64,000 nucleotides of DNA from an uncultured Chloroflexia bacterium (GCA_963713795.1 CAVQNC010000010.1:346375-410374); one strand, 5' to 3'; shown: positions 11,518 to 61,529, counted from the stretch's first letter. Program-made: numbers and translations. Notes: generated by a model from the sequence alone, not told the origin.

Positions 11518-12438
11518 GTGTCCGATCAGCGTCCCATAGGCGTATTCGACTCAGGCGTCGGCGGTCTCACCGTACTGCGGGAGATCCTGCGCCGGCTCCC
11601 TTATGAGTCGACGGTCTACCTCGGGGACAACGCGCGTGCTCCCTACGGGACCCGCGACGACGACGAGGTCCGGCGTTTCAGCGTTCAGGCCCTCGACGCA
11701 CTGGTCCGGCGCGACGTGAAAGCGCTGGTCGTCGCGTGCAACACCTCGACGTCGGTGGCCCTCGGCGATTTCAGGAGGCGCTACGACCTGCCGGTCCTCG
11801 GCGTCGTTCGGCCCGGGGCGGCAGCCGCGGCGCTGGCCACGCGAAACAGGCGCGTCGGGGTGATAGCCACTCCGGCCACCGTTCGTTCGCGGGCGTACTT
11901 CAACGCGATCAAGGACGAGAACCCGGCCGTGGAGGTCTACGAGCACGCCACACCCGGTCTCGTGCCGCTCGTCGAGGCCGGCCGCCTGACCGGACCAGAA
12001 GTCGAGGCTGCCGTCAGGCGGGCCGTCGCGCCGCTCCTCGGCGAGCGCGATGGAGATGGCGACTTCATCTTCCCGCTGCCGCCATCGGCGCGGATCGACA
12101 CGCTGCTCCTGGGCTGCACTCACTACCCGCTGCTGCTGGGCGTGCTGCGCGATTGCGTGGGTGACGGCGTGGCCATCGTCGATTCGGCCACCGCGACGGC
12201 CTCGTCGCTGGCCGAGCTGCTTTCCGTCAACGCCCTGGAGGCGCCCGGCACGACGCGCGGCACGGCTGCCGATGCCGGGATGGCCGGGCACGAGCCGCCG
12301 GACGAAGCCGTGCTGGCGCCGACACATCGCCAGCTGACGACCGGCGACGTTGCGGCGTTTCGATCGGTGGCCGAGCGAATGTTCGGGGAAGACTTCCCGG
12401 AGATCGGCGCAATCGATCTTGAGGCCGGCCCGGCGTGA
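11518..12438 (+). CDS. murI: Glutamate racemase
   Basis: GVFDSGVGGLTVL, LVVACNTSTS, LGCTHYPLL. Confidence 0.9.
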   Translation: MSDQRPIGVFDSGVGGLTVLREILRRLPYESTVYLGDNARAPYGTRDDDEVRRFSVQALDALVRRDVKALVVACNTSTSVALGDFRRRYDLPVLGVVRPGAAAAALATRNRRVGVIATPATVRSRAYFNAIKDENPAVEVYEHATPGLVPLVEAGRLTGPEVEAAVRRAVAPLLGERDGDGDFIFPLPPSARIDTLLLGCTHYPLLLGVLRDCVGDGVAIVDSATATASSLAELLSVNALEAPGTTRGTAADAGMAGHEPPDEAVLAPTHRQLTTGDVAAFRSVAERMFGEDFPEIGAIDLEAGPA

Positions 12439-13673: not shown

Positions 13674-13701
13674 TCGGAGCCGTCCAGCAAAGGGGACGCA
13701 C

Positions 13702-14733: not shown

Positions 14734-14951
14734 GACGGCCGTCGGGCCGGTCGATCAGGAGTTTTGGCCGGCCGACGCCGGCCTCTCGGCGATCGACCCG
14801 GAGTTGCGCCGGTCGACGCCGGCCTTTCGAAGTTCGACCCGGGCTTCCCGTCGTTCGACCCGGAGCTGCCCCGCCGATCGATCCGGACCCGGCGGCACTC
14901 CGGTAGCATGTGCACGGCGCGGCTGCGTCATGCGGAGGAGGCTACCGGCAC

Positions 14952-16055
14952 ATGCAGATCGCCATCGTCGGGCTTGCCGGCTCGGGCAAGACCACGGTCT
15001 TCAACACGCTTACGCGAGGCCACGCCCAGACCGGCGGCTACGGCGGCATGGAAGTGCACGTCGGAACCGTCAAGGTCCCCGATGAACGGCTCAACACGCT
15101 GGCCGAGATCTTCAAGCCCAGGAAGATCGTTCACGCGGATGTGACCTATTTCGACCTCCCGGCCCCGCCTGCCTCGACCGACGGCCGGGTCGGAACCGAA
15201 GAGCTGCCGGCCGACCAGCTGGCTCGCCTGCGCGAAGCCGACGCGCTGCTGCACGTGGTCAGGGCCTTCGAGGACGCGGCCGTGCCGCATCCGGACGGAC
15301 CCGTCGACGCCTGGCGGGACCTGGAGCGGATGGACCTGGAATTCACGCTGGCCGACCTGTCGGTGATGGAGAAGCGCATCGACCGGCTCAAGGCGGCCGG
15401 CCACCACGGGACCGCGGCCGAGCGAGACGCCAACGACCACGAGCTGGAGCTGCTCGAGCGGCTCCATCGGCCCCTGACGGACGGGAAGCCGCTGCGCGGC
15501 GAGAAGCTGCTGCCGGAGGAGGAGAAGTCGATTCGCGGCTTCCGGTTCCTGACCCAGAAGCCGGTCCTCGTCCTGCTCAACGTCGGCGAGGCCGACCTGC
15601 CGCGAGAAGCGGAACTCGTGGCCGGCATCGCCACCCGCTACAAGCAGTCGAACACGATGGTCGATGCCCTCTCGGCCAAGATCGAGATGGAGCTCGGCGA
15701 ACTGGAACCCGATGAGGCCGCCGTCTTCATGGACGAGCTGGGCCTGGCGGAGTCGAGCCTGGATCGGGTCATCCGGCTCAGCTATCAGCTGCTCGGCCTG
15801 ATCTCCTTCCTGACGGCCGGGCCGGACGAGGTCAGAGCCTGGCCGATCCCCGACGGCTCGTCGGCGGTGGATGCGGCCGGCGCGATCCACACCGACCTGG
15901 CTCACGGCTTCATCCGGGCGGAGGTGGTGCCGTACCACGACCTCGTCGAGTTGAGGTCTATGGCCGAGGCGCGCAAGCACGGAAAGCTGCGGTCGGAGGG
16001 GAAGACCTACACGGTCAAGGACGGCGACGTCATCGAGATCCTCTTCAGCAAGTAG
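14952..16055 (+). CDS. ychF: YchF/Obg-family ribosome-associated GTPase/ATPase with a C-terminal TGS-like domain
   Basis: IVGLAGSGKTTVFNTL P-loop; C-terminal YTVKDGDVIEILF; the likely start is the internal ATG at 14952 (MQIAIVGL) rather than the track start at 14910. Confidence 0.7.
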   Translation: MQIAIVGLAGSGKTTVFNTLTRGHAQTGGYGGMEVHVGTVKVPDERLNTLAEIFKPRKIVHADVTYFDLPAPPASTDGRVGTEELPADQLARLREADALLHVVRAFEDAAVPHPDGPVDAWRDLERMDLEFTLADLSVMEKRIDRLKAAGHHGTAAERDANDHELELLERLHRPLTDGKPLRGEKLLPEEEKSIRGFRFLTQKPVLVLLNVGEADLPREAELVAGIATRYKQSNTMVDALSAKIEMELGELEPDEAAVFMDELGLAESSLDRVIRLSYQLLGLISFLTAGPDEVRAWPIPDGSSAVDAAGAIHTDLAHGFIRAEVVPYHDLVELRSMAEARKHGKLRSEGKTYTVKDGDVIEILFSK

Positions 16056-16109
16056 CGCGTAGCGGCCAGTGCCGCGGCCGCCCGGGGCCGCGGCAATCGG
16101 TCGTTCCTC

Positions 16110-16410
16110 TTGAGAGCTTGCCCGAGCCGGCCGCCACACCCGCCGAGAGTCCGCGTCCGCTGCCCGAGCCGGCCGCCACACCCGCCGAGAGTCCGCGTCC
16201 GCTGCCCGAGCCGGCGGCCACACCCGCCGAGAGTCCGCGTCCGCTGCCCGAGCCGGCCGCCACACCCGCCGAGAGTTCCGCGTCCGCGGCCCGAGCCGGC
16301 CGCCACACCCGCCGAGAGTCCGCGTCCGCTGCCCGAGCCGGCCGCCAGACCCGCCGAGAGTTCCGCGTCCGCGGCCCGAGCCGGCCGCCAGACCCGCCGA
16401 GAGTCCGCCA
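16110..16410. repeat. Tandem array of about 7 copies of a 42-nt GC-rich unit (cccgagccggccgccacacccgccgagagtccgcgtccgctg); some copies carry 1-nt indels
   Basis: Directly visible head-to-tail repetition between convergent genes; no unique spacers, so not CRISPR. Confidence 0.9.
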
Positions 16411-16726
16411 AGAGTTGCGTATTACTACTGGCAGTATTGGTAAGTCGAGCCGCGCTTCGGCATGGGCGCGGATCTTCTTCTTGTGGCCTCCGAGCTGGGC
16501 ACGCTGAGCGTCAATCCAGCCGCAAGGCGACGAAGGTCGGCGCGTGTAGGCCGGATCCGCCGCTTACCAATACTGAGATTGGTATTGCGCAAGAATGGGC
16601 CCACGGCCCGCCTCGGGCGCGCCTCGGGTCCCCTGCGTACCGCTCCGACGCGGGCGACGACACCGCCCCGCTCGCCCCGCTCGGCCCGCTCGCCCCCGCT
16701 CCGCCCGCTCGCCCGGCCGCCTCGCC

Positions 16727-17083
16727 TCAGTTGATGTGCGAGTCCCCGCCTGGAAAGTCGACGAAGAGGCCGCGATAGTCGGGCCCATCCTCGTCGTCAT
16801 CGTCGTCAGAGTCGATGCTGGCCAGGTAGTTGTCGTCGTCGATCTTGGAGACGTTGACCGAGGCGCTGAGGCGATCGTCGGAGATCGGTATGAACTCGTA
16901 GTCGCGCTCGAGCTCCTCCGCGATGGCCTCGATCAGGGTGTCCTGGTCGAAGGAATCCTGGACCCTGTGCCTGATCTCCTGGACCAGCTCGAAGAAGGAG
17001 TCGGCATCCATTTCCTCCTCGCGAACGAGGAGCACGTCGGCGAAGATGTCGTCGTCGCCTTCGCGAAGTTCGTAGAAGAACAC
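16727..17083 (-). CDS. Small highly acidic hypothetical protein
   Basis: 118 aa, very D/E-rich (DSDDDDDEDGPD); reasonable codon structure compared with surrounding antisense ORFs. Confidence 0.45.
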   Translation of the reverse strand: MFFYELREGDDDIFADVLLVREEEMDADSFFELVQEIRHRVQDSFDQDTLIEAIAEELERDYEFIPISDDRLSASVNVSKIDDDNYLASIDSDDDDDEDGPDYRGLFVDFPGGDSHIN

Positions 17084-39821: not shown

Positions 39822-40930
39822 GTGCTAGCGACCCTTCTCTCGGCCACGTTGAACGGCCTGGACGGCTGCCTCATCAGGGTCGAGGTCGACGTGGCTCCCG
39901 GCCTGCCCGGCTTCACGATCGTCGGGCTCGCCGACACCGCCCTGCAGGAAGCCAGGGAACGCGTACGAGGCGCCATCCGGAACAGCGGCTACGAGTACCC
40001 GCCCCGCCGGATCACGGTCAATCTGGCCCCGGCCGAGCTTCGCAAGAGCGGGGCTTCGCTGGATCTCGCCATAGCCCTCGGGATCCTCGTGGGGTCCGAG
40101 CAGGTAGCCGCGATCGGCCGTTGGGCCGTCCTGGGCGAGCTCTCGCTGGGCGGCGAACTGCGCACGGTTCCCGGGCTGCTGCCGATGGTCGCGGCTCTCG
40201 CTCACCGGCGCGTGGGCCGCGTCGTCGTACCGCTCGATGGCCTTGCCGAGGCGAACCTCGCCGGCCGGATCGATGTCGCCGGTGCCGCCTCGCTGGCCGA
40301 AGCCGCGGCCCTGCTGCGCGAACGCCGCGGCCGGGCGCGCAACCTGCCGCCGCGGGTGGAACTCGCTGCCGGCGGCCCCGCTGAAGCCGGATCCTCGGGG
40401 GGCTACCAGGCGGGCGTCATCACTTGCGATCCCGGCCCGGACCTGGCCGAGGTCCGCGGCCAGATGGAGGCCAGGCGGGCCATGGAAGTCGCCCTCTCGG
40501 GAGGGCATTGCATGGTGATGATCGGCCCACCTGGTTCCGGCAAGACGCTCCTGGCCAGAACGGTCCCCGGCATGCTGCCTCCCCTCGACGACGAGGAAGC
40601 GCGACTCGCGACGATCATCGCGTCCGTCTCCGGCTCCGGGTCGCTGACGAAGCTGATCCGGACGCGGCCCTTCAGGTCGCCCCACCACACCATCTCGTAC
40701 GCGGCGATGGTCGGCGGGGGACCTCACCTCTCGCCGGGTGAAGTGACCCGCGCGCACAACGGCGTGCTATTCCTCGATGAGCTGCCCGAGTTCGATCGAA
40801 ACACGCTGGAGGCTCTGCGCCAGCCGCTCGAGGATGGCCAGGTTGCGATCTCCAGGGTCGGGCACTCGGCGGTCTTTCCTTCGCGGTTCCAGTTGATCGC
40901 GGCGATGAACCCGTGCCCGTGCAAGTGGGA
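39822..40930 (+). pseudogene. comM: comM/yifB-type Mg-chelatase-like AAA ATPase, 3'-truncated at the junction with an integrated element
   Basis: YifB N-terminal domain ([20 protein letters not shown]...), Walker [24 protein letters not shown], then AAMNPCPC, after which homology stops and the ORF runs into antisense recombinase sequence. Confidence 0.8.
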
Positions 40931-42483
40931 ACTACACCCGGGAAGCGGTAGGTCACCACGGCCCTGGCGGTCTTCCTGCCGTCTTCGCCGACCGCCGTGT
41001 GGACGATGATCCCGGAGAGGAGCCGGACGATCTCCTGACGCTCCTCGTCGGGTAGTCCCGCGTCCAGTCGCGCCCGGACTTCGGAAAGGAGGTCATGGAC
41101 CTCTTGGGGCACGATCTCGGCGCTGGGAGCCTGTAGCGCGCTCAGGCGGGCTTGCAGGGCGGTGCGCTCCCCACCGATGCGCTCGAGTTGCGACTCGAGT
41201 TCAGGATCGGTCAGGTGGCCCCGAATGCGCAGGTCGATGGCCGTTCGGCGCTCTGACTCCAAGGTCTCCAGGCGACGAGTCAGAGTCACCGCCTCGGCCT
41301 CGGCGATCGCGCCCTGCGCCTCCCGCTCGGCCTGGCCGTCGAGTTGGTCGATCACATCGCCAGGGTTGCGCAGCCAGGCCTCGATGTCGTCCCAGACGGC
41401 CGGCTCGATCCTGTCGGTCCGTACCGACACGCCGAGGCACTTGCCTGGGATCGGTCCACGCTCCACGAGCTGACCGCCGCAGCGATACCAGCCCACGTCC
41501 TTGCTCCAGGAGCCGACGTAGGTCAGGCCGCAGATGCCGCACTTCATCGCACCCTTGAGCAGGTAGTGGCGATCGGTGTTCTTGGCGCAGCGGCGGTTGC
41601 GGGCGAGGGCAGCCTGGGCCTCGTCCCATAGGGCAGGGGAGACCAGGCCTTCGATCGGGGCGACTATGACCTCGCGGTCACGCTTCTTGGTCCGCCGACC
41701 GTACGAGAGCTGGCCTTTGTAGATGGAGCCTCTGACCATGTTGCCGACTAGGCCGGCTCGCCAGATGCTCTGGGTCTTTCGGGCCCTCACGCCGGTCCCT
41801 TCGCGGGCGCACGCGGTCGGAACCCCGAGGTGGTTGAGTTCGGTTGCTGCGCGACGGCAACTCCAGCCCTCTAGAGCAATCCAGCCGTAGATGCGCCGAA
41901 CGACCTCGGCAGCAGACCAGTCGCCCCATATCGGCGTCTCGTCAGGCACGGGGCGGGCGGACCGCTTGATGCCCTCGATCCTGTAGCCGAGAGCTATCAC
42001 CCCGCCCGTGTAGCGGCCCTCCCTGGCCGCCGTGTCCATCCCGTCGGCGCTGCGTTCGTGGAACACTCGGTGCTCGTTCTGGGCGAGGGTGGCGAAGAGA
42101 TCGAACATGAACGGTGTGAGGCGGCCTTCTCGGAGGGTGACGACCGAGACGTTGAGCCCTTCGAGGCGGCGGCCCGTGGCGGCCGTGTCGGCGAGGTTGC
42201 GGCCGAGCCGGTCGAGCTTGTAGAGCCACAGCTCGTCAATCTGTCCCGCCTCGGCTGCGGCCAGGAGCGCTCTCCCGCCGGGTCGATCGGCAAGTGGCTT
42301 GGTACCGGATACGCCATCGTCGCTGAACCTGGCGACGACCTCGACGTCGGGCTCCCGTTCGAGCCAGCGGTCGAGCTGATCGGTTTGGGTCTTGATCGTC
42401 TCGCGCTCGCGTTGGTCGTCGGAGGAGACGCGCTCGTAGGTCGCGACCCGCCGGACTGCCGGAACCCTCGCCGCGAGCTTCAT
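40672..42483 (-). CDS. Large serine recombinase (resolvase catalytic domain, recombinase domain, zinc-ribbon, coiled coil)
   Basis: [14 protein letters not shown]...[13 protein letters not shown] (catalytic Ser region); zinc ribbon [10 protein letters not shown]...YRCGG; coiled coil. The recognisable C-terminus ends near AVVTYRF, and the last 90 codons or so are antisense to comM. Confidence 0.85.
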
Positions 42484-44989: not shown

Positions 44990-45249
44990 CGACGGTCGCC
45001 GCGGGACAGGCAGGTTCAACACGACGGCGGGCGTCAGGAGCGGTCGGGCGACCACCGGACTCGACGGTTCTCCTGGGGCCCGAGCGATTGCCCTTCTCGA
45101 TCAAGAAGGCGTAGAGGGCCTGGTCCCAGACCGACGGGTCTCCGCTGGTCAGGGCGGGGAGGGGTTGAGCGGTCATCGCGGGCGCCTTGTGTGCGAATTG
45201 GTCGTCGTTTTGACTCACTCACCCTGGCGGCAATAGCAACACCATCGAA

Positions 45250-46060
45250 ACGTCGTGGGCGGGAAAACACTCCGGAGTCCTACCGCCTCGAAGGTGGCGG
45301 CCGGCACGGTCCCGACGGCGGGTCGGGGTACAAAACCCGAGGTTCTCGACTGCAAGTGGGCATCGTCTGGGGCAGCGGAATGGCCGGTTCGGTTCGACCA
45401 TGGTCGTGTTCGCCTCCGGGTCGGGGATGGTGGTCCGGATCTTGCGCCGTCGGACGACGGCCGGCGAGGCCGCGCAGCGCCATGAGGCGGGCCACACGCT
45501 TTCGCCGACGCCCTCTCCTTCGCGGGCCAGGGCGGCGGTGATCCGCGGTGAGCCGTATGTGGCGCGACTCTTGGCGTGGATCTCGACGATCTTGGCCTCG
45601 AGCTTCGCGTCCTCGAGGGCACGAGGGCCCGGGTGGTGGTGATGCCAGCCATAGAAGGCGGAGCGAGAGACCTCCATCAGAGCGCAGGCAGATGCCACGT
45701 TGCGCTCTGCGACCTTCTCCGCCTCGATGAACGGGTAGACGCTCATCGGGTCTCGCGGGCGAAGAAAGCCGCTGCTCGCTTCAGGATGTCGCGCTCCTCG
45801 CGCAGGGTCCTGTTCTCGCGCCGCAGGCGGGCGAGCTCCTCGCGCTCGGCGCTTGTCAGACCTTCGCGGCGGCCGGCGTCGATCTCGGCCTGGGCGACCC
45901 AGCGGCGGACCGCGGTCTCGGACAGATCGAGGTCTTGGCCACCGCGCCGACCGAACGCTCGCCGCTGCGGCAGAGCTCGACGACCTGGGCCTTGTACTCG
46001 TCGGGGAACGACCGTCTCGGTCGTCGCTGCTGTTCCATGACCACCATGATGAACATCCTT
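45250..46060 (-). pseudogene. IS3-family insertion sequence remnant: orfA with an internal 1-nt deletion; orfB frameshifted and truncated before the DDE domain
   Basis: orfA RRSFPDEYKAQVVELCRSGERSVGAVAK|DLDLSETAVRRWV (frame break); slippery-site-like junction ...RASSGFLRPRDPMSVYPFIEAEKV...AFYGWHHH...TYGSPRITAAL, then further frame breaks and no rve domain. Confidence 0.75.
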
Positions 46061-46449
46061 TCCCGGCCTGTTCGGCCGATGTCAGATGTCCGTCAAAGCG
46101 GGGCAATGCCCGGCGAAGCAGGGGTCGAGCCCCCGCATTTCGGGCACGGGTACATGGTCAACTCGGTCTTTGACATGCGACCTCCTCCCGATCTTGTAGC
46201 TCAACCCAGACCCACCCCAGTCTAGCGGGGTCAAACCATCTAACTGAGCCCGTCTCGGTAGCCTCTCCACGCTCAAAGCACGTCGGTATGACCCGGATGA
46301 CTTCGGATCAGGTGATGTGTCGCTGTCACCATCACCCGATCGTGGCGGACTGCCGTGGCGACGAACTCGCGCTACAGTTGCTTGGACGCTAGGCGACTGT
46401 CAAACTCCCATTGCCTGGGCACTACCGCCGCTGGTGAGATGACCGCTGG

Positions 46450-47955: not shown

Positions 47956-48801
47956 TTGTCCTCGACGTCAAGGCCCGCCAAGAGAGCGGGCGCCTGGCGG
48001 ATGACGTCAGCAAGCAGCTGGCCGTCGAGATGGGGAGGGCACACCGCGATGATCATGGACCGGCTTCTGGGCCGGCGGCCCAAGGCCCCCAATCTCACGA
48101 AGAGATACGTTGGCGTCCGCCACAAACGCGGCTACGGGCAAGCGTTCATCGAGGAGGCAGGGCAGCGCCGCTCGCTGTCTCTGGTGGACGGGGATGGGGA
48201 GATCCGATGGGGGCCCGACTCGATCCCTGCGTGTACCAACCTTGCTGTGTCCATTCTTGGCGACGCCCTGGGAGAGCGAGCGGAGGCGCTGAAGGAGGTT
48301 GCCGCGGGCCAGCCTTTGGTGGAGGAGCTGTTCATCAGGAGGGTCATCAACAAGCTCCCGCCTGATCATGTCGGGAGGAAAAGAGGAGAGGATAGCTGGA
48401 CTCTCTCGTTGGAAGACGTTACGGCCTGGGCGGAGGCCGCGGCGCTGAAGCAGCGACTACCACGAGTCTCTCACGGCGACTTTGTGGGTAGCTGGGACTC
48501 CTCGGAGGAGATGCTCGAGAACATCCGGATCAACGAGGACGAGGCCCGACTGGAATCCACGATGCTGCGTGTCGAGACCGCGATGATGCGCAAGATCGTG
48601 GCTGACCGACCTTGCCGCACGTGCAGTGGAAGCGGAGCCGTTAGCGAGTGCCCTACTTGTCGTGGCAAGGGGACTATCTACGGTTCCGGACCAGACGGAA
48701 GGCCCGGAGGGGCCAGCTGCACGACGTGCGGTGGAACTGGCCGTAATCTAAGGGAGAGCGCGTCGTGCCCCAGCTGTTCAGGCACCGGATTGGCAGAGTA
48801 G
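47956..48801 (+). CDS. Hypothetical protein with a DnaJ-type CxxCxGxG zinc-finger cluster at the C-terminus
   Basis: CRTCSGSG...CPTCRGKG...CTTCGGTG...CPSCSGTG; the start is possibly the internal MIMDRLL. Confidence 0.45.
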   Translation: MSSTSRPAKRAGAWRMTSASSWPSRWGGHTAMIMDRLLGRRPKAPNLTKRYVGVRHKRGYGQAFIEEAGQRRSLSLVDGDGEIRWGPDSIPACTNLAVSILGDALGERAEALKEVAAGQPLVEELFIRRVINKLPPDHVGRKRGEDSWTLSLEDVTAWAEAAALKQRLPRVSHGDFVGSWDSSEEMLENIRINEDEARLESTMLRVETAMMRKIVADRPCRTCSGSGAVSECPTCRGKGTIYGSGPDGRPGGASCTTCGGTGRNLRESASCPSCSGTGLAE

Positions 48802-49033: not shown

Positions 49034-50173
49034 ATGGACCCAGGCGGCGACGATGCCTTCACCGATCTCGGTGACTGGCTGGTCGAGGATGCTCAAGGGC
49101 TCGCGCCGTTAGCCCCAGGTGATGTCATCCACATCCTGCGGTCGGAGGAGCTGTGGGCCTTCGAGAGCACGTCCGGAGAGCTGCTCGGCTCGTACTCACG
49201 ACGCGCGAGCCGAGGGCCCTCACCACGAAATCACCTCGTAGCCTGCAACGTTTCGAATGGCAGCTACCTGCGCCTCGAGCACCTTTCGCCGGACATGAAC
49301 GAGACTCCAATCGCATCGCCATTCGACGAGGCGTCTTCATCCCCGGTTGAAGTCGATCCTCGGAAGCCGATCAGGGACTCTATTGAGGCGCGGACGATGG
49401 AAGGCGTTCTGCCGAATGAAGCTGCTGAGGCTCTTCGTCCGGTGTTAGCGCCGGCCGAGACGATCCGAGCCTCTTTTCCTGGTCCATCTGGCTCAGCTGT
49501 CGTAGTCTCGGATCGCCGCGTCTTCGTGTTCAAACGCCTCATTGGCAAGGGGGCAATGCGCGCCTGGCCACTTGCTTCGGTAATCGACGTGTCGGTGCGC
49601 CCGAACCCGCCCCACAGCATTGCCCTCCTGGTGGTCGAGATTGTCGGCGACGCAAAGAAGCCGGAGATACTGAGCCCCAACGTGATGGCAATCCCCGGCC
49701 GCGGCTACGAACCAATGCTTGCGGCGCTTCGTCAGGCTGTCGTCGAAGGTCAGTCGCTGGCAGCGAGTCGGGGTGTCGAGATCCATGGTGGGGAGCTTTC
49801 GGCCCTCACCCACGGCTGGACGGTGACCGCGGTCACGCGCACGTACGAAGGCAGCGAAGCCGGCAGGCGCATGCTGGCGGCAGAGACCCAGGTTCTTGGG
49901 TTGCACGGCTACGTCCCTGCGAGTCAGAGTCAGGACGGAGGGCACATCCACGCGGGCCGCATTCTGATGACGGGAGGTCTGAGCGTGCTGGCCGGCAGCG
50001 CCGGCACGCGCTCCAAAGGGTCGATCATTGTGAGCTTTCACCGACCGCCGGCAGTTGCTGGGCCGATCGACATACCAGATCAAATTCGGAAGCTGGCCGA
50101 CCTCCGCGACGCGGGGGTCCTCACGTCGGCCGAGTTCGATGCCAAGAAGCGAGAACTCCTGAGGCGGATGTAG
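49034..50173 (+). CDS. Hypothetical protein with a C-terminal SHOCT domain
   Basis: C-terminus IRKLADLRDAGVLTSAEFDAKKRELL matches the SHOCT consensus. Confidence 0.45.
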   Translation: MDPGGDDAFTDLGDWLVEDAQGLAPLAPGDVIHILRSEELWAFESTSGELLGSYSRRASRGPSPRNHLVACNVSNGSYLRLEHLSPDMNETPIASPFDEASSSPVEVDPRKPIRDSIEARTMEGVLPNEAAEALRPVLAPAETIRASFPGPSGSAVVVSDRRVFVFKRLIGKGAMRAWPLASVIDVSVRPNPPHSIALLVVEIVGDAKKPEILSPNVMAIPGRGYEPMLAALRQAVVEGQSLAASRGVEIHGGELSALTHGWTVTAVTRTYEGSEAGRRMLAAETQVLGLHGYVPASQSQDGGHIHAGRILMTGGLSVLAGSAGTRSKGSIIVSFHRPPAVAGPIDIPDQIRKLADLRDAGVLTSAEFDAKKRELLRRM

Positions 50174-50492: not shown

Positions 50493-51701
50493 GTGTCACT
50501 CCCGAATCCGCCATCCGGGCGATCCAAGATCTTCGCGAGCCTCATGCCGCCCGAGGTCCGGGCCACCCTGGAATCGGCCGGCGCGACACTCACAGCCGAC
50601 CCGGCGACCGGTGCGCTCAAGTTCGCGCTCAATGGCTACTTGTTTGCCCGGATCGAGGCTGATCCGCCCGCCGTCGTCTGGGCGAGCCCGGCCTTCGGGC
50701 AATTCCTGGGCACGCTGTTCGAATACAAGGAGTGGGCAGAGGAGACCCTCGCGGCCAAGGGCATGGCACGTGATATGGTCCTGGCTCGCCCCAAGGCGCC
50801 GCCTGATCTCGCGGAAGCTCAGGCTGCAGGACTCACCGTGAGCCGGAGCGGCAACGGGCTCACCGGGTACAGGACCAGTCTGAGTCATCCGGCGCTCGGC
50901 GAGTTCGTGCGACTTGGCGCGGTCGATGTTTCGTTCTCCTCGCCCCAGGTGTTCGTGCCATTGCGCTTTCTGGTCGAGATGGACCGCCTGTTCACTCCGG
51001 TTCCATACGGAACCGGTTCCGATCAGTTCAGCCTGAGCCCCTACATGGCTGGCGTATACAACGCACGCCTCAGAGATCTGGCTCCGGTCTGTCGCGACAT
51101 TGGCGTCAGGATCGGAACCATGTCCATTACCAGCGCGGACGCCGAGGGAGGCAAGGAGGCAGCGTTCGATGTGGACCTGGAGTGGGACCCCGATGAGAAT
51201 CCGGACGCCCGCATGGAGGCCTACCGGGCGGTCTTGGCGGCCTACGGGCCTGATCGCGACATGGTTCGTGTCCTGATCGATTTTCACGATCTTCTTGATG
51301 GACGAGCCGGGCGACTGGTAGCCGACACATCCGATCTGTCCCCCGAGATCGTGAGCGACGGACCTGCGTTCGATGCATTCGCCATATCCCATGCCCACGG
51401 GCTCTACGGCGAGATGCGCCGCCTGTGCGATCTGTGGGAGACCGAGATCGGCTACGTGGACTCAGACCTGCGGGCGCTCATCAAGAGCGAGGGTGGTCCG
51501 GCTGCAGCGAGAGCTGTTCTTGCCGAACCTGAGCAATCCGTCGTCATTAGCCGTCTGGCGGCCGCCGACAAGATCACCATGAGTGTGGAGTATCTTGTCC
51601 TGCGCCCGGAATGGCGGTCTCTGTTCACCGCCGACGAGCGCAGAATTGCATGGAGTCGGCTTTCGGCCTGCGGCCTGGAGCTGGACTACCCCTACGTCTA
51701 G
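50493..51701 (+). CDS. Hypothetical protein
   Basis: 402-aa ORF with a coding-like composition; no motif recognised. Confidence 0.4.
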   Translation: MSLPNPPSGRSKIFASLMPPEVRATLESAGATLTADPATGALKFALNGYLFARIEADPPAVVWASPAFGQFLGTLFEYKEWAEETLAAKGMARDMVLARPKAPPDLAEAQAAGLTVSRSGNGLTGYRTSLSHPALGEFVRLGAVDVSFSSPQVFVPLRFLVEMDRLFTPVPYGTGSDQFSLSPYMAGVYNARLRDLAPVCRDIGVRIGTMSITSADAEGGKEAAFDVDLEWDPDENPDARMEAYRAVLAAYGPDRDMVRVLIDFHDLLDGRAGRLVADTSDLSPEIVSDGPAFDAFAISHAHGLYGEMRRLCDLWETEIGYVDSDLRALIKSEGGPAAARAVLAEPEQSVVISRLAAADKITMSVEYLVLRPEWRSLFTADERRIAWSRLSACGLELDYPYV

Positions 51702-51990: not shown

Positions 51991-53583
51991 TTGACCTTCT
52001 CGCGCGACCAGACTCAGGGGGACTCCCACATGCTGACCGGCCAACTCCGCAGCCAGATCGACCGCATCTGGGACGCCTTCTGGTCCGGCGGCATCTCCAA
52101 CCCGCTCGAGGTCATCGAGCAGATCACCTACCTGCTCTTCCTGCGCCGGCTGGACGACCTGCAGACGCTGGAGGAGAACAAGTCCGCCCGGCTCAAGCAG
52201 CCGATGGAGCGCCGCATCTTCCCCGAGGGCAAGGACGCCAAGCGGCCGCCCCTACGAGGACCTGCGCTGGTCGCGCTTCAAGAACTTCGCCCCGGCCGAG
52301 ATGTACGCCGTCGTGAGCGAGCACGTCTTCCCGTTCCTGCGCACGCTGGGCGGCGACGAGTCCACCTACGCCCACCACATGAAGGACGCGCGCTTCACCA
52401 TCCCCACGCCGGCGCTGCTGGCCAAGGTGGTGGACCTGCTCGACGACGTGCCGATGGAGGACCGCGACACCAAGGGCGACCTCTACGAGTACATGCTCGG
52501 CAAGATCGCCACCGCCGGGCAGAACGGCCAGTTCCGCACGCCCCGCCACATCATCCGGCTGATGGTGGAGATGACCGCGCCGCAGCCGACCGACATCATC
52601 TGCGACCCGGCCTGCGGCACGGCCGGCTTCCTGGTCGCGGCGGGCGAGTACCTGCGCGAGCGCCACCCGAGCCTGCTGCACGACGCGAAGCTGCAGCGAG
52701 CACTTCCACCACGGCATGTTCCACGGCTTCGACTTCGACAACACCATGCTCCGCATCGGCAGCATGAACATGCTGCTGCACGGCGTCGAGAACCCGGACA
52801 TCCGCTACCGCGACTCGCTGGCGCAGGACCACGCCGGCCGACGAAGAGGCCTACACGCTGGTCCTCGCCAATCCGCCCTTCGCCGGCAGCCTCGACTACG
52901 AGAACACCGCCAAGGATCTGCTGCGATCGTCAAGACCAAGAAGACCGAGCTGCTCTTCCTGGCGCTCTTCCTGCGCCTGCTCAAGCCCGGCGGCCGCGCC
53001 GCGGTCATCGTGCCCGACGGCGTGCTGTTCGGCTCGAGCAAGGCGCACAAGGACGCTGCGGCGGATGCTGGTCGAGGAGCAGAAGCTCGACGCCGTGGTG
53101 TCGCTGCCCGAGCGGCGTGTTCCGGCCCTACGCCGGCGTCTCGACCGCGATCCTGCTCTTCACCAAGACCAACTCCGGCGGCACCGACCAGGTCTGGTTC
53201 TACGACGTCGAGGCCGACGGCTGGAGCCTCGACGACAAGCGCACGCCGCTGCTGTCCGAAGACAAGCTCGGCCCGGTGCCGACGCACGGCGCTCACCGCC
53301 GAAGAGCACGCCAAGAACAACCTGCCCGACGTGCTGGCGCGCTGGGCCGCAGCGCGACGGCGCCGAGCGCGAGCGCCCGCGCACCGCCCAGAGCTTCTGC
53401 GTCCCCAAGGCCGACATCGCCGCCCAGGGCTACGACCTCTCGCCTCAACCGCTACAAGGAAGTGGTCCACGAGGAGGTCGAGCACCGCGCGCCGCAAGGA
53501 GATCCTCGCCGACCTCGCGAAGCTGGAGGAGGAGATCCAGCAGGGGATGAAGGAGTTGGAGGGCGATGCTGAAGTGATACTCT
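51991..53583 (+). pseudogene. hsdM: Type I restriction-modification methyltransferase subunit HsdM, disrupted by multiple single-nucleotide frameshifts
   Basis: HsdM N-terminus LRSQIDRIWDAFWSGGISNPLEVIEQITYLLFLRRLDD; FRTPRHIIRLMVEM; motif I DPACGTAGFL; motif IV LANPPFAGS; these are spread over at least 4 reading frames. Confidence 0.8.
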
Positions 53584-53989
53584 CGAAGCTGTCGATCTGG
53601 CTGGCGCATTATCCGACTCGGTCGGCTCAGATGATGTCGTGGCAGCTTCTCGACAGCCTGCGACGGCCAGTAACCGATTCGATCGTCGGCCCGGGCCATA
53701 TCCGTACACGGCAGCAAGTGGCCAGCAACGTGGACGATCGATGACTTCCTGTTCGATGAGCCGCTCGCGATCTGCTTGCGGAGGACGGCGGACATTTCGA
53801 TAGCCTGACAGAGGCATTGCTTACCGGATATCGGGCAAGACCTGGGTCGCCAACCATGCACATGTCCTACGCCCGAAGCCGGCAAATGAAGCTTGCGTTC
53901 CTGTGTCGCGTTCTGCGAGCAACTCATGACGTAACGCCGTTCGTAACCGGAACAACTCGGGGCAAGCTCATCGCAAGCTGGAGCCGAGA

Positions 53990-54770
53990 TCGCTCGTTCC
54001 CCTGCCGCCCTTGCCCGAGCAGCGGCGGATTGCGGAGGTGCTGGACCGGGCGGAGGCGCTGCGGGCCAAGCGCCGCGCCGCCCTCGCCCAACTCGACACC
54101 CTCACCCAATCCATCTTCCTCGACATGTTCGGCGACCCCAGCCACGAATCCAAGCGGTTGGCCATTCGCCGATGATCGATCTGGTCGATCCCGAGCGACC
54201 GATCAGTCACAGGGAATAACTTCATGCGCCGGACCTGACAATCCCGGGAGTCAGATATGTGCGAGTCGTCGACATCAAGTCGGACGAATCGATACTCTCC
54301 GGCTATCCGAACGAGCGACCGAGGGCCATCTCTGCGATGAGTCTGGCCGTGCTCGCTTCTGAGGCCGGGATCGATCTTGATTACCTGCATTCGCGGGCAG
54401 CCGTGGGTAGCATGGCAATCGTCCCATGCCAGACCTCGAAGTGAGCGAATCAATCAGCAAGATACCGCTCGCCTCTCAATGTGGAGCTCAGTCCCATCTT
54501 CTATCTGCGAGCTGTCTTCGCACGGCAAGCGCTGATCAACAATGCGATCGATGAGCATCCATGAAAGGTGCTTGCAGTCCGAGCAAGATCGCGGTTCGAT
54601 GCGAAGATAATGCCTGATATGCCCGCCGCTATCGCGCTGCAGCATGAGTTTGCCGAGCCGTGTCGCGGCGGTCGAGCGCTCGAAAGCCGCCCATGCATCC
54701 TCACTCGCCGAACTCGAGGCCCTCTTCGCCTCGCTCCAGCATCGCGCCTTCCGGGGGGAATTGTGACGTG
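53990..54770 (+). pseudogene. hsdS: HsdS specificity-subunit remnants (conserved C-terminal segments only)
   Basis: [47 protein letters not shown] at about 53990-54175 and SLAELEALFASLQHRAFRGEL at about 54700-54768; no target-recognition domains are left. Confidence 0.6.
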
Positions 54771-54774
54771 AGTG

Positions 54775-55504
54775 CCGTTCCGCCGTTCCCAGAGGGTCAG
54801 ATTGAGGCTCTCGCCGTTGTGCTGGGGGAGTGCGGGACAGGAACGGACATCACGCATGTGTTGAATGATCGCGGTCTCCCGGACAACTTCGGCGAAACGA
54901 CGAAGTGGAGGCGTTTGTACGCGATCTTCCTTGAGAGCCCAGCGCAAGGATCAGTCGGCGAATCGCGTACTCGACTTCGTTCGAGCCTTCCTCTTGCCCG
55001 TCCGTTTCGTTGGTCGCGGTGAGGAATTCGAGGACCCGGCGACAGGAGCTGAATAGGATCCTATCGTTCTCGGGCACTTGAGTACGGTAAGTGACGTGCG
55101 AGTTCAGGCGCACTGAAGCAGTGCCGACGCTGGACGAGGCCGAGGTGCGGGCGAGGACCATCCAGGCCAAGTTCAAAGGGCGGCGGATCCACCCCGAAGT
55201 CCTCAAGTATTGCCGCGCCGAGTTGATGCGGGACGATTACTTCCACGCGGTATTCGAGGCTTCGAAGGGGCTTGCGCAGCGAATCCGAGAGATGTCCGGC
55301 GCCACCGGGGACGGCGCCGCGCTTGTGGAACAGGTGTTTTCGCTCGAACAGCCGCTGCTTGCATTCAACTCCCTGCGGACCGATACGGAGAAGTCCGAGC
55401 ACAAAGGCTTCGCCGCTCTTCTGAAGGGGTGTTTCGGAGCGGTGCGCAACCCATTGGCTCATCAGCCAAAGCTCCTGTGGCAAGGGAGAGGACGACGCCG
55501 CTGA
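54775..55504 (+). pseudogene. TIGR02391/Ymh-family protein (common Type I R-M accessory), frameshifted
   Basis: ...KWRRLYAIFLESPAQ | RKDQSANRVLDFVRAFLLPVRFV... | EAEVRARTIQAKFKGRRIHPEVLKYCRAELMRDDYFHAVFEASK...RNPLAHQPK, the family hallmarks, split over three frames. Confidence 0.6.
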
Positions 55505-55551
55505 CTACCTGACTACTTGGATCTCGCTCCTGCATCGGAAGCTGGACGACT

Positions 55552-58500
55552 GTGTGTCCACTCGAACCGGGCGGGGCTGACGTGAGCCAGTTCGCCTTCC
55601 TCCAGCGCGAATGGCCGGCTGTGTTCGAGGCCGCGGCCAGGGCCGAGGCGGCGGTGCATCCGGACCCGCGGGCGGCCTGCTTCTACGCCCGGCGGGCGCT
55701 CGAGCTGGCGGTGGCGTGGGCATACAAGCACGACGCCGCGCTGCGGCTGCCCTACCAGGACAACCTCTCGGCGCTGATCCACGAGCCGACCTTCAAGCTG
55801 GCTGCGGGCGAGGCGGTCTTCAACAAGGCGCGCGTGATCAACACGCTCGGCAATCGCGCCGTCCACAGCCACAACGCGATCCCGCGGACGACGCGCTGGC
55901 GGCGGTGCGCGAGCTGTTCCATGTCTGCTACTGGCTCGCCCGCACCTACGCGCGCGAGGCGCGACCGGCGCCGGACCTGGCCTTCGACCCCGGCGCTCTG
56001 CCGAGGACGCGCTCGTCCCGAAGCAGACCGCCGAGCAGCTGCAGCAGCTCGAGGCCGCGCTGCGCGAGCGCGACGAGAAGCTCGCCGTCGCTGCTGGCCG
56101 ACGAGACCGCGCTCGACGAGGAGCTGAAGCGCCTGCGCGCCAGGTGGCCGAGGCCAAGAAGGCCGCGGCGGCGCAGCCCGACACGCACGACTATTCGAAG
56201 CCGAGACGCGCGACTACTTCATCGATCTGCTGCTCAAGGAAGCGGGCTGGCCGCTGCGACCAGGCGCGCGATCGGGAGTTCGAAGTCGCCGGCATGCCCA
56301 ACACCCAGGAGCAAGGGCTTCGTCGACTACGTGCTCTGGGGCGACGACGGCAAGCCGCTCGGCCTGGTCGAAGCCAAGCGCACGCGGCGCGACCCGCGCG
56401 TGGGCCAGCAGCAGGCCAAGCTCTACGCCGACTGCCTGGAGCGCCAGTTCGGCCAGCGCCCGGTGATCTTCTACTCCAACGGCTACGAGCACTGGATCTG
56501 GGACGACACGAGCTATCCGCCGCGCCGGGTCCAGGGCTTCTACAAGAAGGCCGAGCTGGAGCTGCTGATCCAGCGCCGAGCCAGCCGCAAGCCCCTCGCC
56601 TCGGCCGAGATCAACGGCGCGATCGTCGAGCGCTACTACCAGACGCGCGGCCATCCGCCGCATCGCCGAGGCCTTCGAGCGCGACCACGACCGCAAGGCG
56701 CTGCTGGTCATGGCCACCGGCGCGGGCAAGACCCGCACGGTCATCGCGCTGTGCGACCTGCTGATGCGCTGCAACTGGGCCAAGCGCGTGCTGTTCCTCG
56801 CGGACCGCGTCGCGCTGGTCAAGCAGGCGGTGAACGCCTTCAAGCGCCACCTGCCGGACTGCGTCGCCGGTGAACCTGGTCACCGAGAAGCGACGCCGAG
56901 GGCCGCGTCTTCGTCTCCACCTATCCGACGATGATGGGGCTGATCGACGAGACGGCGGACGGCCAGCGGCGCTTCGGCGCCGGCCATTTCGATCTCGTGA
57001 TCATCGACGAGGCGCACCGCTCGGTCTTCCAGAAGTACCGCGCCATCTTCGACTACTTCGACTCGCTGCTGGTCGGCCTGACGGCGACGCCCAAGGACGA
57101 GATCGACCGCAACACCTACAGCCTGTTCGACCTCGAAAACGGCGTGCCGACCGACGCCTACTCGCTCGAAGAGGCGGTGCGCGACGGCTTCCTCGTGCCG
57201 CCGAAGGCCGTGTCGGTGCCGCTCAAGTTCCAGCGCGAGGGCATCAGGTACGACGAGCTGTCCGAGGACGAGAAGGACCAGTGGGACGCGCTCGAGTGGG
57301 ACGAGGAGGGCGACGGTCCCGGACCGCGTCGAGGCCGCGGCGCGTCAACAAGTGGCTGTTCAACAAGGACACGGTGGACAAGGTGCTGGCGCACCTGATG
57401 ACCCGCGGCCTGACGGTCGCCGGCGGCGACCGCCTGGGCAAGACGATCATCTTCGCCAAGAACCAGGACCACGCCGAGTTCATCGCCGAGCGCTTCAACG
57501 CCAACTACCCGCACTACCAGCGGCGAGTTCGCCCGCGTCATCACCTTCAAGACCGAGTACGCCCAGAGCCTGATCGACGACTTCTCGAACAAGGAGCAAG
57601 GCGCCGCACATCGCCATCTCGGTGGACATGCTCGACACCGGCATCGACATCCCCGAGGTCGTGAACCTGGTCTTCTTCAAGCTGGTGCGCTCGAAGACCA
57701 AGTTCTGGCAGATGCTCGGCCGCGGCACGCGCCTCTGCCCGGACCTGTTCGGGCCGGGCAAGGACAAGGAGTTGCTTCCAGCTCTTCGACTACTGCCGGA
57801 ACCTGGAGTTCTTCAGCCAGAACCCGGAGACGACCGAGGGCGCGGCTGGGCGAGTCGCTGGGCAAGCGGCTGTTCGTGACGCGGCTGGAGCTGGTCGAGG
57901 AGCTGGACAAGCGCGTGGGCGCCGGTCGCCGGCCCGGCGGCCGCGGCGACAGCCATGGCGCCCTACGGCGACCCGACGACCGAGGCGGAGGTGCGCGGCG
58001 CGCTCGGCCGAGTCGCTGCATCGCGAAGTGGCCGCGATGAACCTGGACAACTTCGTCGTCCGGCCGCAGCGGCGGCTCGTCGAGAAGTACGCCAAGCCCG
58101 AGGCCTGGGCGTCGTTGTCGCGCGAGGCGCTCGCGCGAGCTGGCGCACGAGGTCGCCGGCCTGCCGGCGGAGCTGGACGCGGAGGCCGAAGAGGCCAAGC
58201 GGTTCGACCTGCTGATCCTCAACCTGCAGCTGGCGCTGCTCCGATCCGAGCCCGGCTTCGAGCGACTGCGCGATCAGGTCAAGGCCATCGCCGGCCTGCT
58301 GGAGGAGAAGTCCGCCATCCCGATGGTCCGGGCCCAGATGGCGCTGATCCAGGACGTCCAGACCGACGAGTGGTGGGTCAGGACGTCACCGTCCCGATGC
58401 TGGAGCTGGTTCGCCGCCGCCTGCGCGATCTGGCCAAGCTGATCGAGAAGCAGAAGCGCCGCGTCGTCTTCGCCGACTTCGAGGACGAGATGGGCGCCGA

Positions 58501-59011
58501 GGAGCGGGTCGATCTGCCCGGCCTCGCCGCCGGCTGGGACTTCGAGAAGTTCCGCGCCAAGGCGCAGGTCTTCCTGCGCGAGCACCAGGATCACGTCGCC
58601 ATCCGGAAGCTGCGGATGAACAAGCCGCTGACGGCCGGCGACCTGGCCGAACTGGAGCGCATGCTGGTGGAGAGCGGCGTCGGCGGGCCCGATCAGATCG
58701 ACCGCGCCAAGCAGGAGTCGCACGGCCTCGGCCTGTTCGTCCGTTCGCTGGTCGGCCTGGATCGAGGCGCCGCCAAGGAGGCCCTGGCCGGGTTCCTGTC
58801 GGGCAAGACGCTGGGCGCCAACCAGATCGAGTTCGTCAACCTGATCGTCGACCACCTGACCGAGCACGGCGTCATGCCCGCCGCGCTGCTCTACGAGTCG
58901 CCCTTCACCGACATCACGCCGCGCGGCCCGGACGGCCTCTTCGCCTCGGCCGAGGTGGACGAGCTGATCGCCACGCTTCTGCGGGTCAGGGCCACGGCGG
59001 TCGCGGCCTGA
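55552..59011 (+). pseudogene. hsdR: Type I restriction enzyme R subunit HsdR, disrupted by many frameshifts
   Basis: N-terminal domain FAFLQREWPAVFEAA...; KGFVDYVLWGDDGKPLGLVEAKR; helicase motifs [44 protein letters not shown]; these are distributed over all three forward frames. Confidence 0.8.
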
Positions 59012-59218: not shown

Positions 59219-60028
59219 ATGGGCCTGAGTCATTCTCACGGGGTGGTGACCATCGAGCAGGGGAAGGTCGTCAACGCGACCCATGGGAAGAACCTGGTTA
59301 CTCGCAAGGAGTGGCAGAAGGTAGACCGGATCCCCGTCGCAGGGATCAGGAACGTGTTGGTGCAGAGCCGGGATCGGCTGACGTTTCAGTTCGAGGCGAT
59401 GGACGTGCGAGGCAAGGCAGTCCTGAGCATCGAAGGCTGCACGTCCAAGCCAGAGCTCGACGCCTTCTTCCGTGAGCTTGTCTCTGCCAACCCCAACATC
59501 GTCGTCGAGCTCGCCCATCCCAGCCACGGTCTGACCGATCTCGAACACGAGGCTGCCGAGAAGGAAGCCAAGCGCGCCATCAAGTTCAACGAGGAAGAAG
59601 AGAAGCGACGCAAGGCCGCGTTGGGTCTCCGCCCCGAGGTCAAGGTCAAGATCTACGACAACCACAAGGACTACGAGCACGACGCAAAGAAGATGTCCAA
59701 GGACGGCTGGATGCCGGAAGGTCAGACAGGAGGCCGGGGCGGAGCGTCCCTTGCCGGAACCGGCGCCAAGATCCTCCCCAACTGGCTGGGGCTCGGGGCC
59801 ATCACGGGTTTCAGCCGCAAAGGCGACAAGATCACGGTCACGTGGGTCAAGCAACCGCCGGGCTTTGTCCCAAAGGATTACCTCGATGTGCCCGAGGTAC
59901 CCGCGCCCAGGGTGTTTCCCCACGAACCTATTTCCAGGCACGACTCCTCCAGCCCGTTCAAGCGCGGTCAGGAGTTCTTGGTCGGCTGGGCTCTGCCGGT
60001 AGCGACCCGGACCGTGCCGCGCCTATAA
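59219..60028 (+). CDS. Hypothetical Lys-rich protein
   Basis: 269-aa ORF, compositionally distinct from the flanks (lower GC, K-rich); no motif recognised. Confidence 0.45.
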   Translation: MGLSHSHGVVTIEQGKVVNATHGKNLVTRKEWQKVDRIPVAGIRNVLVQSRDRLTFQFEAMDVRGKAVLSIEGCTSKPELDAFFRELVSANPNIVVELAHPSHGLTDLEHEAAEKEAKRAIKFNEEEEKRRKAALGLRPEVKVKIYDNHKDYEHDAKKMSKDGWMPEGQTGGRGGASLAGTGAKILPNWLGLGAITGFSRKGDKITVTWVKQPPGFVPKDYLDVPEVPAPRVFPHEPISRHDSSSPFKRGQEFLVGWALPVATRTVPRL

Positions 60029-60078
60029 CTCCGGAGCCCACGGCACCTCCGCCCGACCAGTCTGCCGGCGCGCCGGAA

Positions 60079-60186
60079 ATGAGCATTGGGGACAAGCTCC
60101 GCCAACTGGCGGCGCTGCGTGACGACGGGATCATCTCGGCCGAGGAGTTCGAGGCGAAGAAGGCGGAGCTGCTTCGCGCCTTCTAG
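60079..60186 (+). CDS. Stand-alone SHOCT-domain mini-protein (35 aa)
   Basis: MSIGDKLRQLAALRDDGIISAEEFEAKKAELLRAF is essentially a complete SHOCT consensus. Confidence 0.4.
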   Translation: MSIGDKLRQLAALRDDGIISAEEFEAKKAELLRAF

Positions 60187-60338: not shown

Positions 60339-60653
60339 TCAATTCCTGCGAGTTGGGAGACCCCGATTGGTCCTCGATTGCTCCGGCTCAGCTGCGACTC
60401 TGCCGGCCTCCCAAGGGTACGCCCTCCCACATTCTGGACAGTACGGGCTCGGCTGCGCCATAGCAGCGCCAAGCACGAGAACACCCTCGGCGATGTAGTC
60501 GCCTTGAATGGGTTTTCCGCAGCCTTCACAGGCGCTTATCGCTGGCTGCCCGCATTGAGGACAGAATGGCTTGTTGAATTGGGGTCGACTGCCGGCTCGG
60601 TCATTGATGACGTGGCCTGACCGACAGACGACGGCGGTGTCGTAATGTCCCAT
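60339..60653 (-). CDS. Zinc-ribbon protein (two CxxC pairs plus extra Cys/His)
   Basis: CRSGH...CPQCGQ...CEGCGK...CPECGR. Confidence 0.5.
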   Translation of the reverse strand: MGHYDTAVVCRSGHVINDRAGSRPQFNKPFCPQCGQPAISACEGCGKPIQGDYIAEGVLVLGAAMAQPSPYCPECGRAYPWEAGRVAAEPEQSRTNRGLPTRRN

Positions 60654-60722
60654 GACGTTGCCAGCATGCGAGTGGGATACGGCGCATCGGCAGCGGCGTC
60701 ACGAGGGAGGCCAGACAACAGG

Positions 60723-61529
60723 ATGGCGAAGGAGTCTGCGGCAGCCTCTGATGGTGAGGCTCAGGATGTCGCGGCCGAGGCGACGAGCCCGGTGGGGGGT
60801 ACAGACGAAGCCGAGCTACGGGAGTGGCATCGGCGGAATTGTCAGATGTTCGATGCCTTTGGCGCCCAGGTAGCACAGGTGATCAAGGTCGCCCTGCGAG
60901 AAGTTGGCATCCAATTCCAGGACGTGTTCAGCCGCACCAAAGGTGAAGAGAGCTTTCTTGAGAAGGCCAAACACTACGACGACCCTCGGGCGGAGGTTCA
61001 GGACCTCGTTGGATTGCGCGTGATCACCTATTTCAGCGGGGAGATCGACCGCGTTGAGCAGAGGCTAAACGCCCTCTTTGCGGTCGACTCGTCGCTCACC
61101 GCAGACAAGGGTAGTGATCTGGGGCCGGATCGGCTCGGATACCGTGCGCGCCATTTCGTCTGCAGAATTGGACCAGATCGAGAGCAACTCGCCGACTGGA
61201 AGTCGTTCAAGGGGATCCGGTTCGAAGTGCAAGTCACCACTGTCTTGGGGCATGCGTGGTCAGAATTCGAACACGACCGAGGCTACAAATATCGAGGCCA
61301 GCTTCCGCCAGAGCTCGAACGTCGACTTAATCTGGCCGCAGGGCTACTCGAGGTGGCGGACCGTGAACTCGATGCGCTTGCTAAGGAGATCTCAAGGTAT
61401 ACAGCGGAAGTCGCGGAGACGATCGGTCGCCGAGATGGGGCGCTGGCGAAGATCGACTTGAATGCCATCTCTTTGCGTGAGCTCCTGCTGGAACGGCTCC
61501 CTGCCTCGGTCGCGTCCGGCGCGATTTAG
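60723..61529 (+). CDS. RelA/SpoT-domain (small alarmone synthetase/toxSAS-like) nucleotidyltransferase
   Basis: DLVGLRVITYF, YRARHFVCR, EVQVTTVLGHAWSEFEHD, the RSD synthetase motifs with catalytic D/G/R and E.Q residues present; the likely start is MAKESAAA (the track start at 60645 would overlap the divergent gene). Confidence 0.7.
   Translation: MAKESAAASDGEAQDVAAEATSPVGGTDEAELREWHRRNCQMFDAFGAQVAQVIKVALREVGIQFQDVFSRTKGEESFLEKAKHYDDPRAEVQDLVGLRVITYFSGEIDRVEQRLNALFAVDSSLTADKGSDLGPDRLGYRARHFVCRIGPDREQLADWKSFKGIRFEVQVTTVLGHAWSEFEHDRGYKYRGQLPPELERRLNLAAGLLEVADRELDALAKEISRYTAEVAETIGRRDGALAKIDLNAISLRELLLERLPASVASGAI

Follow-up and report, generated by a model that had tools for sequence, protein, structure and literature searches.

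The window analysed here is a stretch of 64 000 nucleotides from an uncultured Chloroflexia bacterium (GCA_963713795.1 CAVQNC010000010.1:346375-410374; G+C content ∼65–70%), numbered from its first letter. It carries an ordinary and very widespread type I restriction–modification (R-M) operon consisting of hsdM, hsdS, a ymh-type gene and hsdR, all on the + strand (Table 1). As written, none of the four genes has an uninterrupted reading frame. Each can be recognized across two or three frames, as the initial annotation had reported and as was borne out by the list of open reading frames (ORFs), a Viterbi model and alignments; with all of its genes split in this way, the operon is, as also claimed there, not an active R-M system as written. 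The annotated start of the locus, 51991, is not that of hsdM, the start codon of which is the ATG at 52030.

Table 1. Features of the type I R-M operon. Insertions (+1, +2) and deletions (−1) in hsdM and hsdR are specific to the window in comparison with 12 intact relatives.
Feature	Position	Strand	Remarks
hsdM, type I methyltransferase subunit	52030-53577	+	10 × +1, 1 × −1; 512 residues once corrected
hsdS, specificity subunit	53566-54766	+	Start approximate, overlapping the end of hsdM; frame-scrambled throughout
hsdS target-recognition domain 1 (TRD1)	∼53.6-53.99 kb	+	
hsdS central conserved region	53.99-54.17 kb	+	tblastn match
hsdS TRD2-sized segment	54.18-54.63 kb	+	
hsdS C-terminal conserved region	54.64-54.766 kb	+	tblastn match
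ymh-type gene (Pfam Hypoth_Ymh), between hsdS and hsdR	54768-55580	+	∼6 × +1
hsdR, restriction/translocase subunit	55582-59011	+	15 × +1, 1 × +2, 4 × −1; 1138 residues once corrected
Zone rich in indels, from the first to the last frame-breaking event specific to the window	52243-58378	none	

Corrected HsdM and HsdR sequences were obtained by taking out the surplus bases and padding each of the five deletions, and both then run to the native stop codon. The corrected HsdM contains the Pfam domains HsdM_N (PF12161) and N6_Mtase (PF02384), with the motifs DPACGTAGFL and NPPF (in LANPPFAG) readable; the features of a type I R-M HsdM are complete only after ten inserted bases have been removed and one deletion has been padded. 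A length of 512 residues is the mode for the family, and the best relatives of the protein are 92% identical. The corrected HsdR matches DUF4145, HSDR_N, ResIII/DEAD, Helicase_C and EcoEI_R_C in Pfam. The nuclease region, the superfamily 2 (SF2) helicase/translocase motifs and the C-terminal domain are all present in it, and D...EAK, GAGKT, DEAH, TATP and QMLGRGTR can be read. The ymh-type gene gives a match to PF09509 within one frame (E = 2.9e-36, 124 bits) and tblastn matches in four frame segments; in a frameshift-aware alignment it shares 206 of 290 residues (71%) with its homologue at locus L007.

According to the initial annotation, hsdS had lost both of its target-recognition domains (TRDs). 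This is wrong for TRD1, in which a frameshift-aware alignment with the intact HsdS of locus L044 recovered 83 identical residues out of 112 (74%) across six frameshifts, with a score of 337 against 28 ± 2.4 for shuffled sequences. At the DNA level, hsdS is 73% identical to the L044 gene across 53401–54151. For TRD2 the loss is unproven: the segment has the expected size (∼470 nt) and scores only 42, against 29 ± 3 for shuffles, and a homologue search with it gave no detectable relative. In Pfam, hsdS is a partial match to Methylase_S.

In gene order, strand, Pfam domain sets and the conserved regions of hsdS, the locus resembles hsdM–hsdS–ymh–hsdR operons that have an EcoEI-type HsdR C-terminus. 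It differs from them in having no intact frame as written and a TRD2 that has no recognizable relative.

Close relatives of hsdM were collected in a scan of one genome per species, which yielded 80 loci (L001–L080) from many bacterial phyla and some archaea. For indel counting, the window was aligned to 12 of these loci that have both hsdM and hsdR intact, whereas events in ymh and hsdS were counted by frameshift-aware protein-to-DNA alignment. This classification against intact relatives, which the initial annotation had proposed, gave 31 window-specific events in hsdM and hsdR taken together, mostly +1 insertions outside homopolymers: 25 are +1, one is +2, five are −1 and none exceeds 2 nt. 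Six further +1 events were counted in ymh and roughly 8–14 events in hsdS; of the ∼14 in the frameshift-aware alignment of hsdS, those in TRD2 are uncertain and one overlaps the last hsdM event. The operon thus contains ∼45–50 events in total, or ∼6–7 per kilobase. The first lies at 52243, 213 nt inside hsdM, and the last at 58377–58378, 633 nt ahead of the hsdR stop codon, leaving the final ∼630 nt of hsdR clean. At a density of about one event per 130–170 nt such a clean tail has a chance of a few per cent, which suggests that the zone is not bounded by gene ends.

The scrambling was also seen by a homology-free model of codon-position GC content (a seven-state Viterbi model). Between 51992 and 59006 it switches frame ∼35 times, mostly stepping forward by one, while in the remainder of the 64 kb its segments track whole genes. 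The frame scrambling is real and strongly local. Its origin in homopolymer errors, which the initial annotation had named as the finding that would restore intact genes, was rejected: the inserted bases lie outside homopolymer runs, 17 of the 25 inserted single bases differ from both adjacent bases, and no run exceeds a length of 3.

Apart from the indels, the corrected genes were searched for signs of decay. No internal stop codon was found in the corrected HsdM and HsdR, where 300 substitutions would be expected to create about eight nonsense codons. At 855 residues that are invariant in the 12 intact relatives, no unique replacement was found in the window, and the intact relatives themselves carry 1–35 each. 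Only 31 neutral substitutions would be expected to produce ∼11 replacements at these residues, so that the probability of observing none is ∼1e-5. The ratio of nonsynonymous to synonymous substitution rates (dN/dS) between the window and its relatives is 0.20 for hsdM and 0.175 for hsdR, compared with 0.17 and 0.14 among the relatives. The window is indistinguishable from intact genes in this respect, and the dN/dS test, which had been suggested as a check, gave no indication of relaxed selection. Closeness of the window to the family consensus was not used as evidence, as the relatives had been chosen by similarity, which biases that measure. No intact near-identical copy of the locus was found; the best HsdM is 92% identical, and a scan of genome contigs gave at most 92%, on a fragment.

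The inserted bases themselves are the most informative. Of the 24 insertions that were scored, 21 add a base that is the alternative allele at an adjacent polymorphic column, differing from the one that the window has there. As a null model, random bases were inserted at random positions of the corrected genes, followed by the same realignment and scoring (25 replicates per gene). The simulated rate of alternative-allele insertion was 31% for hsdM and 43% for hsdR (38% overall), giving a binomial p for the observed count of between 8e-7 and 8e-6. At 58377, for example, the window reads tgg-GT-cag, where L021 has tgg-gtc and all other relatives have tgg-cag. At 56256 it reads ct[G]c, where four relatives have g and the remainder c; at 57597 it reads gag[C]aag against cgg or aag in the relatives; and at 56860 it reads gac[T]gcg against tcg or gcc. 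All five deletions also fall at polymorphic columns, with neither allele retained. Insertions of the duplication type are depleted (2 of 24, against 35% in the simulations). Among the allele pairs that were merged, transversions predominate, making up at least 15 of 18 where the background is 58% (estimated p ∼0.02), an enrichment that is suggestive only. Mutation cannot know the bases of other genomes, and the match of the inserted bases to alleles found in them therefore points to a consensus of mixed copies. A single second parent was considered and rejected, since L021 supplies only eight of the 15 extra alleles in hsdR; a clean two-parent mixture is unsupported.

The genes concerned are exceptionally common. 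More than 8000 relatives of HsdM were found at E ≤ 1e-50, hundreds of them intact homologues with 88–92% identity. For the left neighbour of the operon (50493–51701), by contrast, only seven representative clusters were found at E ≤ 1e-30, and its best full-length relative is 45% identical. Recruitment of foreign reads would therefore be possible for the operon, though not for its neighbours. At 80–92% protein identity the hsdM/hsdR family occurs in Verrucomicrobiota, Myxococcota, Acidobacteriota, Nitrospirota, Chloroflexota, Cyanobacteria, Pseudomonadota and methanogenic archaea (Methanosarcina, Methanoregula), a distribution that, on sequence similarity, implies a presumably very recent and wide horizontal spread.

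Comparable damage recurs in this family elsewhere. In L089 (ERZ25039503) the hsdM at 10367–11906 carries at least five non-homopolymer +1 or +2 insertions at positions unlike those in the window, and in L088 (ERZ25039554) the hsdR at 13513–16895 carries three +1 insertions. Several small indels are present in this gene family on two contigs of metagenome-assembled genomes (MAGs) from Microflora Danica (MFD), L001 (13132–16417) and L016 (14871–18207); the 5′ part of hsdR in L001 has about nine small deletions. With the sequencing platform of the compared loci assigned from contig names, at least one frameshift was found in four of seven MFD long-read loci but in only a few of several dozen loci with short-read-style names. 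A search with one frameshifted ORF as the query returned many HsdM products of aberrant length, from long ENA contigs. Promiscuous genes may be affected in this way throughout the dataset.

The flanks of the operon were compared over ∼30 kb with independent contigs (L081–L087). They match at 99.6–100% identity, with zero or one single-base gap per contig. L081 is 99.99% identical over 9.2 kb with no gaps, L082 has three differing positions over ∼15 kb and for L083 the identity is 99.96% over 4.5 kb. The ENA analyses ERZ25039480 and ERZ25039473 contain sister contigs whose names are in the style of Flye. The left edge of the island that holds the operon is marked by a large serine recombinase (40672–42483; 603 residues). 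Contig_36967 of ERZ25039480 (L082, 15020–16951) is nearly identical to the window until ∼40.5 kb and then carries an 83%-identical allele of this recombinase, in which the only indels are in-frame and 3 nt long. It ends at window position 42603, at the island edge, and a second contig of the same assembly begins at 42611. The same genomic background thus holds two alleles of the island, with a break in the assembly at their junction. The recombinase allele in the sister contig shows that strain mixtures exist at the locus.

Further sister contigs share the left end of the island at 99.6–99.96% identity up to 45394 and then diverge wholly (L083 from 4474, L084 from 2784). Beyond this point their cargo comprises an HSDR_N/RAMA protein, a 959-residue N6_Mtase/Eco57I-type enzyme and a polysaccharide deacetylase. 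The locus at 45394 is a defence-island hot spot with swapped content, and diverged versions of the island coexist in closely related genomes. Exact-protein look-ups of three flank or left-island ORFs matched sister contigs; look-ups with the ORFs at 59219, 49034, 40672, 60645, 39822, 58028 and 50493 found no other contig that carries the island version of the window.

We consider it probable that the frameshifts are an artefact of a consensus calculated from mixed copies, and we hold with greater confidence that their cause is technical in one form or another. In the organism itself the operon is most likely unbroken; the frameshifts would have arisen in the calculation of the consensus. A long-read metagenome assembly appears to be the origin of the window, and the platform would have been Nanopore, with metaFlye plus Medaka. 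In Microflora Danica, Nanopore reads were assembled with metaFlye and polished in a single Medaka round (PMC12313526), and Flye collapses related strains into consensus contigs (Strainberry paper; PMC8302730). In the proposed mechanism, reads from diverged copies of the operon (the island of another strain, a paralogue or unassembled homologues in other species) would have been piled onto the native reads. At a site where the copies differ by a substitution, both alleles would be kept in series, producing a +1 insertion; less often neither would be kept, producing a −1 deletion. An error model that assumes a single haplotype could favour this outcome, in that two serial alleles, with one deletion per read, would outscore one allele for which half of the reads carry a rare transversion. 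The recruited reads would be clipped near the ends of the shared segment, which would place the limits of the zone inside hsdM and hsdR. Such clipping fits these limits better than would inactivation targeted at genes.

Several points weigh against this explanation. The consensus product has the properties of mixed copies, and the mixing of the reads is deduced from that product only. Membership of the window in the probable source project was deduced from the contig naming and the ENA accession series. The second alleles come from no single relative (for the 15 in hsdR, L021 accounts for eight, L032 for seven and L022 for six) and no parent closer than 92% was found; such scatter indicates either that a picture of two haplotypes is too simple or that the parents are unsampled. 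The 83%-identical recombinase allele was assembled separately and without damage. Alleles of that divergence are thus separable, and the extra assumption is needed that the mixed reads came from copies that have no contig of their own. The deletions cluster, with four in the 5′ part of hsdR and four in TRD1, which the model does not predict in detail, and TRD2 is scrambled despite having no known homologue. To our knowledge, no published demonstration exists of this exact pipeline giving both-allele insertions.

The second technical explanation, which we regard as unlikely, is a generic error-rich stretch, in which very few long reads (through low coverage, gap filling or failed polishing) would have let random errors survive. 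An indel rate of ∼0.7% is within the error range of single long reads. The errors are confined to one stretch, and the probable source project was polished in one round only (PMC12313526). Random errors, however, would not track polymorphic columns and alternative alleles at the rate observed (21 of 24, against 38%). They would also produce unique substitutions, which are not in excess. Nanopore errors are biased towards deletions and enriched in homopolymers, and the indels in the window are opposite to both biases. Random error leaves unexplained why the damage coincides with one operon and recurs in the same gene family elsewhere.

The initial annotation had offered two readings, a locally error-rich assembly and recent focused pseudogenisation. 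The former is supported, though not in the homopolymer form. The latter, in which a type I R-M operon would have been inactivated by small indels within a decaying, horizontally acquired island with insertion-sequence (IS) remnants, we consider quite unlikely. R-M systems are commonly lost or inactivated. The island is variable, with a serine recombinase at its edge and a truncated IS3 remnant at the point where synteny with the sister contigs ends (45394), and all four genes are affected, including the non-conserved TRD2. Natural decay in bacteria, however, is biased towards deletions, varied in indel size and prone to slippage. The deletion bias has reportedly been described by Mira, Ochman and Moran in 2001 and by Kuo and Ochman in 2009. 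The spectrum in hsdM and hsdR is the opposite, with 26 of the 31 events being insertions of 1–2 nt and five being deletions, and about two thirds of the single inserted bases (17 of 25) lack an identical neighbour. Decay would also be expected to leave nonsense codons, replacements at invariant residues and a raised dN/dS, none of which is seen in the corrected genes. Mutation has no means of inserting the alternative alleles of unrelated genomes, and the same signature occurs on unrelated contigs of the same accession series.

The frameshifted transposases that the initial annotation had cited in support of decay contribute little. In the IS630-family transposase (7900–9006, + strand) the HTH part lies in one frame and the DDE_3 part (ORF 8272–9006) in another. 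Only one base differs between the window and the independent contig L081 over the 9.2 kb around this gene, and its single frameshift is therefore a reproducible feature of the sequence, either a real lesion or a programmed shift. The IS3-family remnant (45219–46106, − strand) sits exactly at the 45394 breakpoint in the window's version of the island. It is truncated, consisting of orfA and the HTH_21 start of orfB, with the rve domain absent. Beyond one programmed shift it has several frame changes, one inside orfA and two in the N-terminal part of orfB. These may be the result of genuine decay; alternatively, the consensus artefact may have acted here too, on a further sequence that is widely shared. 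As it belongs to the class of shared sequence that mixing of copies is predicted to damage, its support for pseudogenisation is weak.

A real cellular process is very unlikely. Here, two diverged copies of the operon would have met in a cell, and recombination, repair or targeted mutagenesis would have left both alleles in series. The both-alleles pattern does require two templates, and two diverged island alleles do coexist in the population. In its most specific form, aberrant processing of homeologous heteroduplexes would turn mismatches into tandems of both bases, and dozens of +1 insertions would silence an R-M system without any other mutation; to this we give equally little credence. 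We know of no repair or recombination pathway that makes a mismatch into a tandem of both bases, and recurrence of the damage across genomic contexts and samples fits a pipeline better. Programmed recoding, in which the genes would be expressed through frameshifting or transcript editing, is favoured by nothing except the preservation of the protein sequence after correction and is effectively refuted, as the ∼45 shifts are of mixed sign, share neither a slippery motif nor any common sequence context and are absent from intact relatives, and we know of no programmed recoding system of this kind in bacteria.

Two known situations can be compared with the locus. Naturally decayed or phase-variable R-M genes resemble it in being frameshifted and in lying in a mobile, variable island. 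Phase variation of R-M systems operates by slippage in homopolymers or short repeats in hsdM, hsdS or mod genes. The operon in the window differs in having no repeat tracts at the indel sites, a bias towards insertions, dozens of events rather than a single switch, no sign of relaxed selection and no nonsense codons. With the strain-collapsed consensus contigs of long-read assemblies (PMC8302730) it has in common several versions in the sample, damage limited to a shared segment and clean flanks. The copies mixed in the window would, however, be ∼8–20% diverged and perhaps from other species, rather than strains with ∼99% identity, and the retention of both alleles in tandem to give +1 frameshifts is not described in that work.

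Both neighbours of the operon had been taken as intact. The left neighbour at 50493–51701 looks intact, aligning nearly end to end with a 407-residue homologue. To the right, an ORF without a Pfam match (59219–60028) precedes a C-terminal SHOCT domain that lies in a different frame (59842–60186, + strand), and the codon-position model switches frame near 60050; a single frameshift close to the R-M operon but outside it may have broken up one gene at 59219–60186. The other SHOCT protein, encoded at 49034–50173, lies within a single frame. Also adjoining the operon, at 60645–61529 (+ strand), is the gene for a 294-residue protein with a RelA_SpoT nucleotidyltransferase domain (Pfam E = 6e-13), which resembles a small alarmone synthetase and may be a toxin or a defence component. 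Another island protein, of 281 residues (47956–48801, + strand), has weak matches, below the Pfam thresholds, to DUF6166 and to a DnaJ-type CXXCXGXG zinc finger.

The locus most likely holds no new biology, its frameshifted state not being a real feature of the organism. The defence system, though it looks dead in this public contig of a MAG, is most likely alive. Across a large resource of long-read metagenomes, the artefact seems to affect this R-M family, which is widely transferred, and it probably affects further promiscuous genes, transposases among them. As a lesson for quality control, non-homopolymer +1 insertions at sites that are polymorphic among homologues, in genes with no other signal of decay, would serve as a flag that can be raised without reads. 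Counts of pseudogenes, censuses of defence systems and inferences about the decay of R-M systems would be biased for precisely those genes that are the most mobile.

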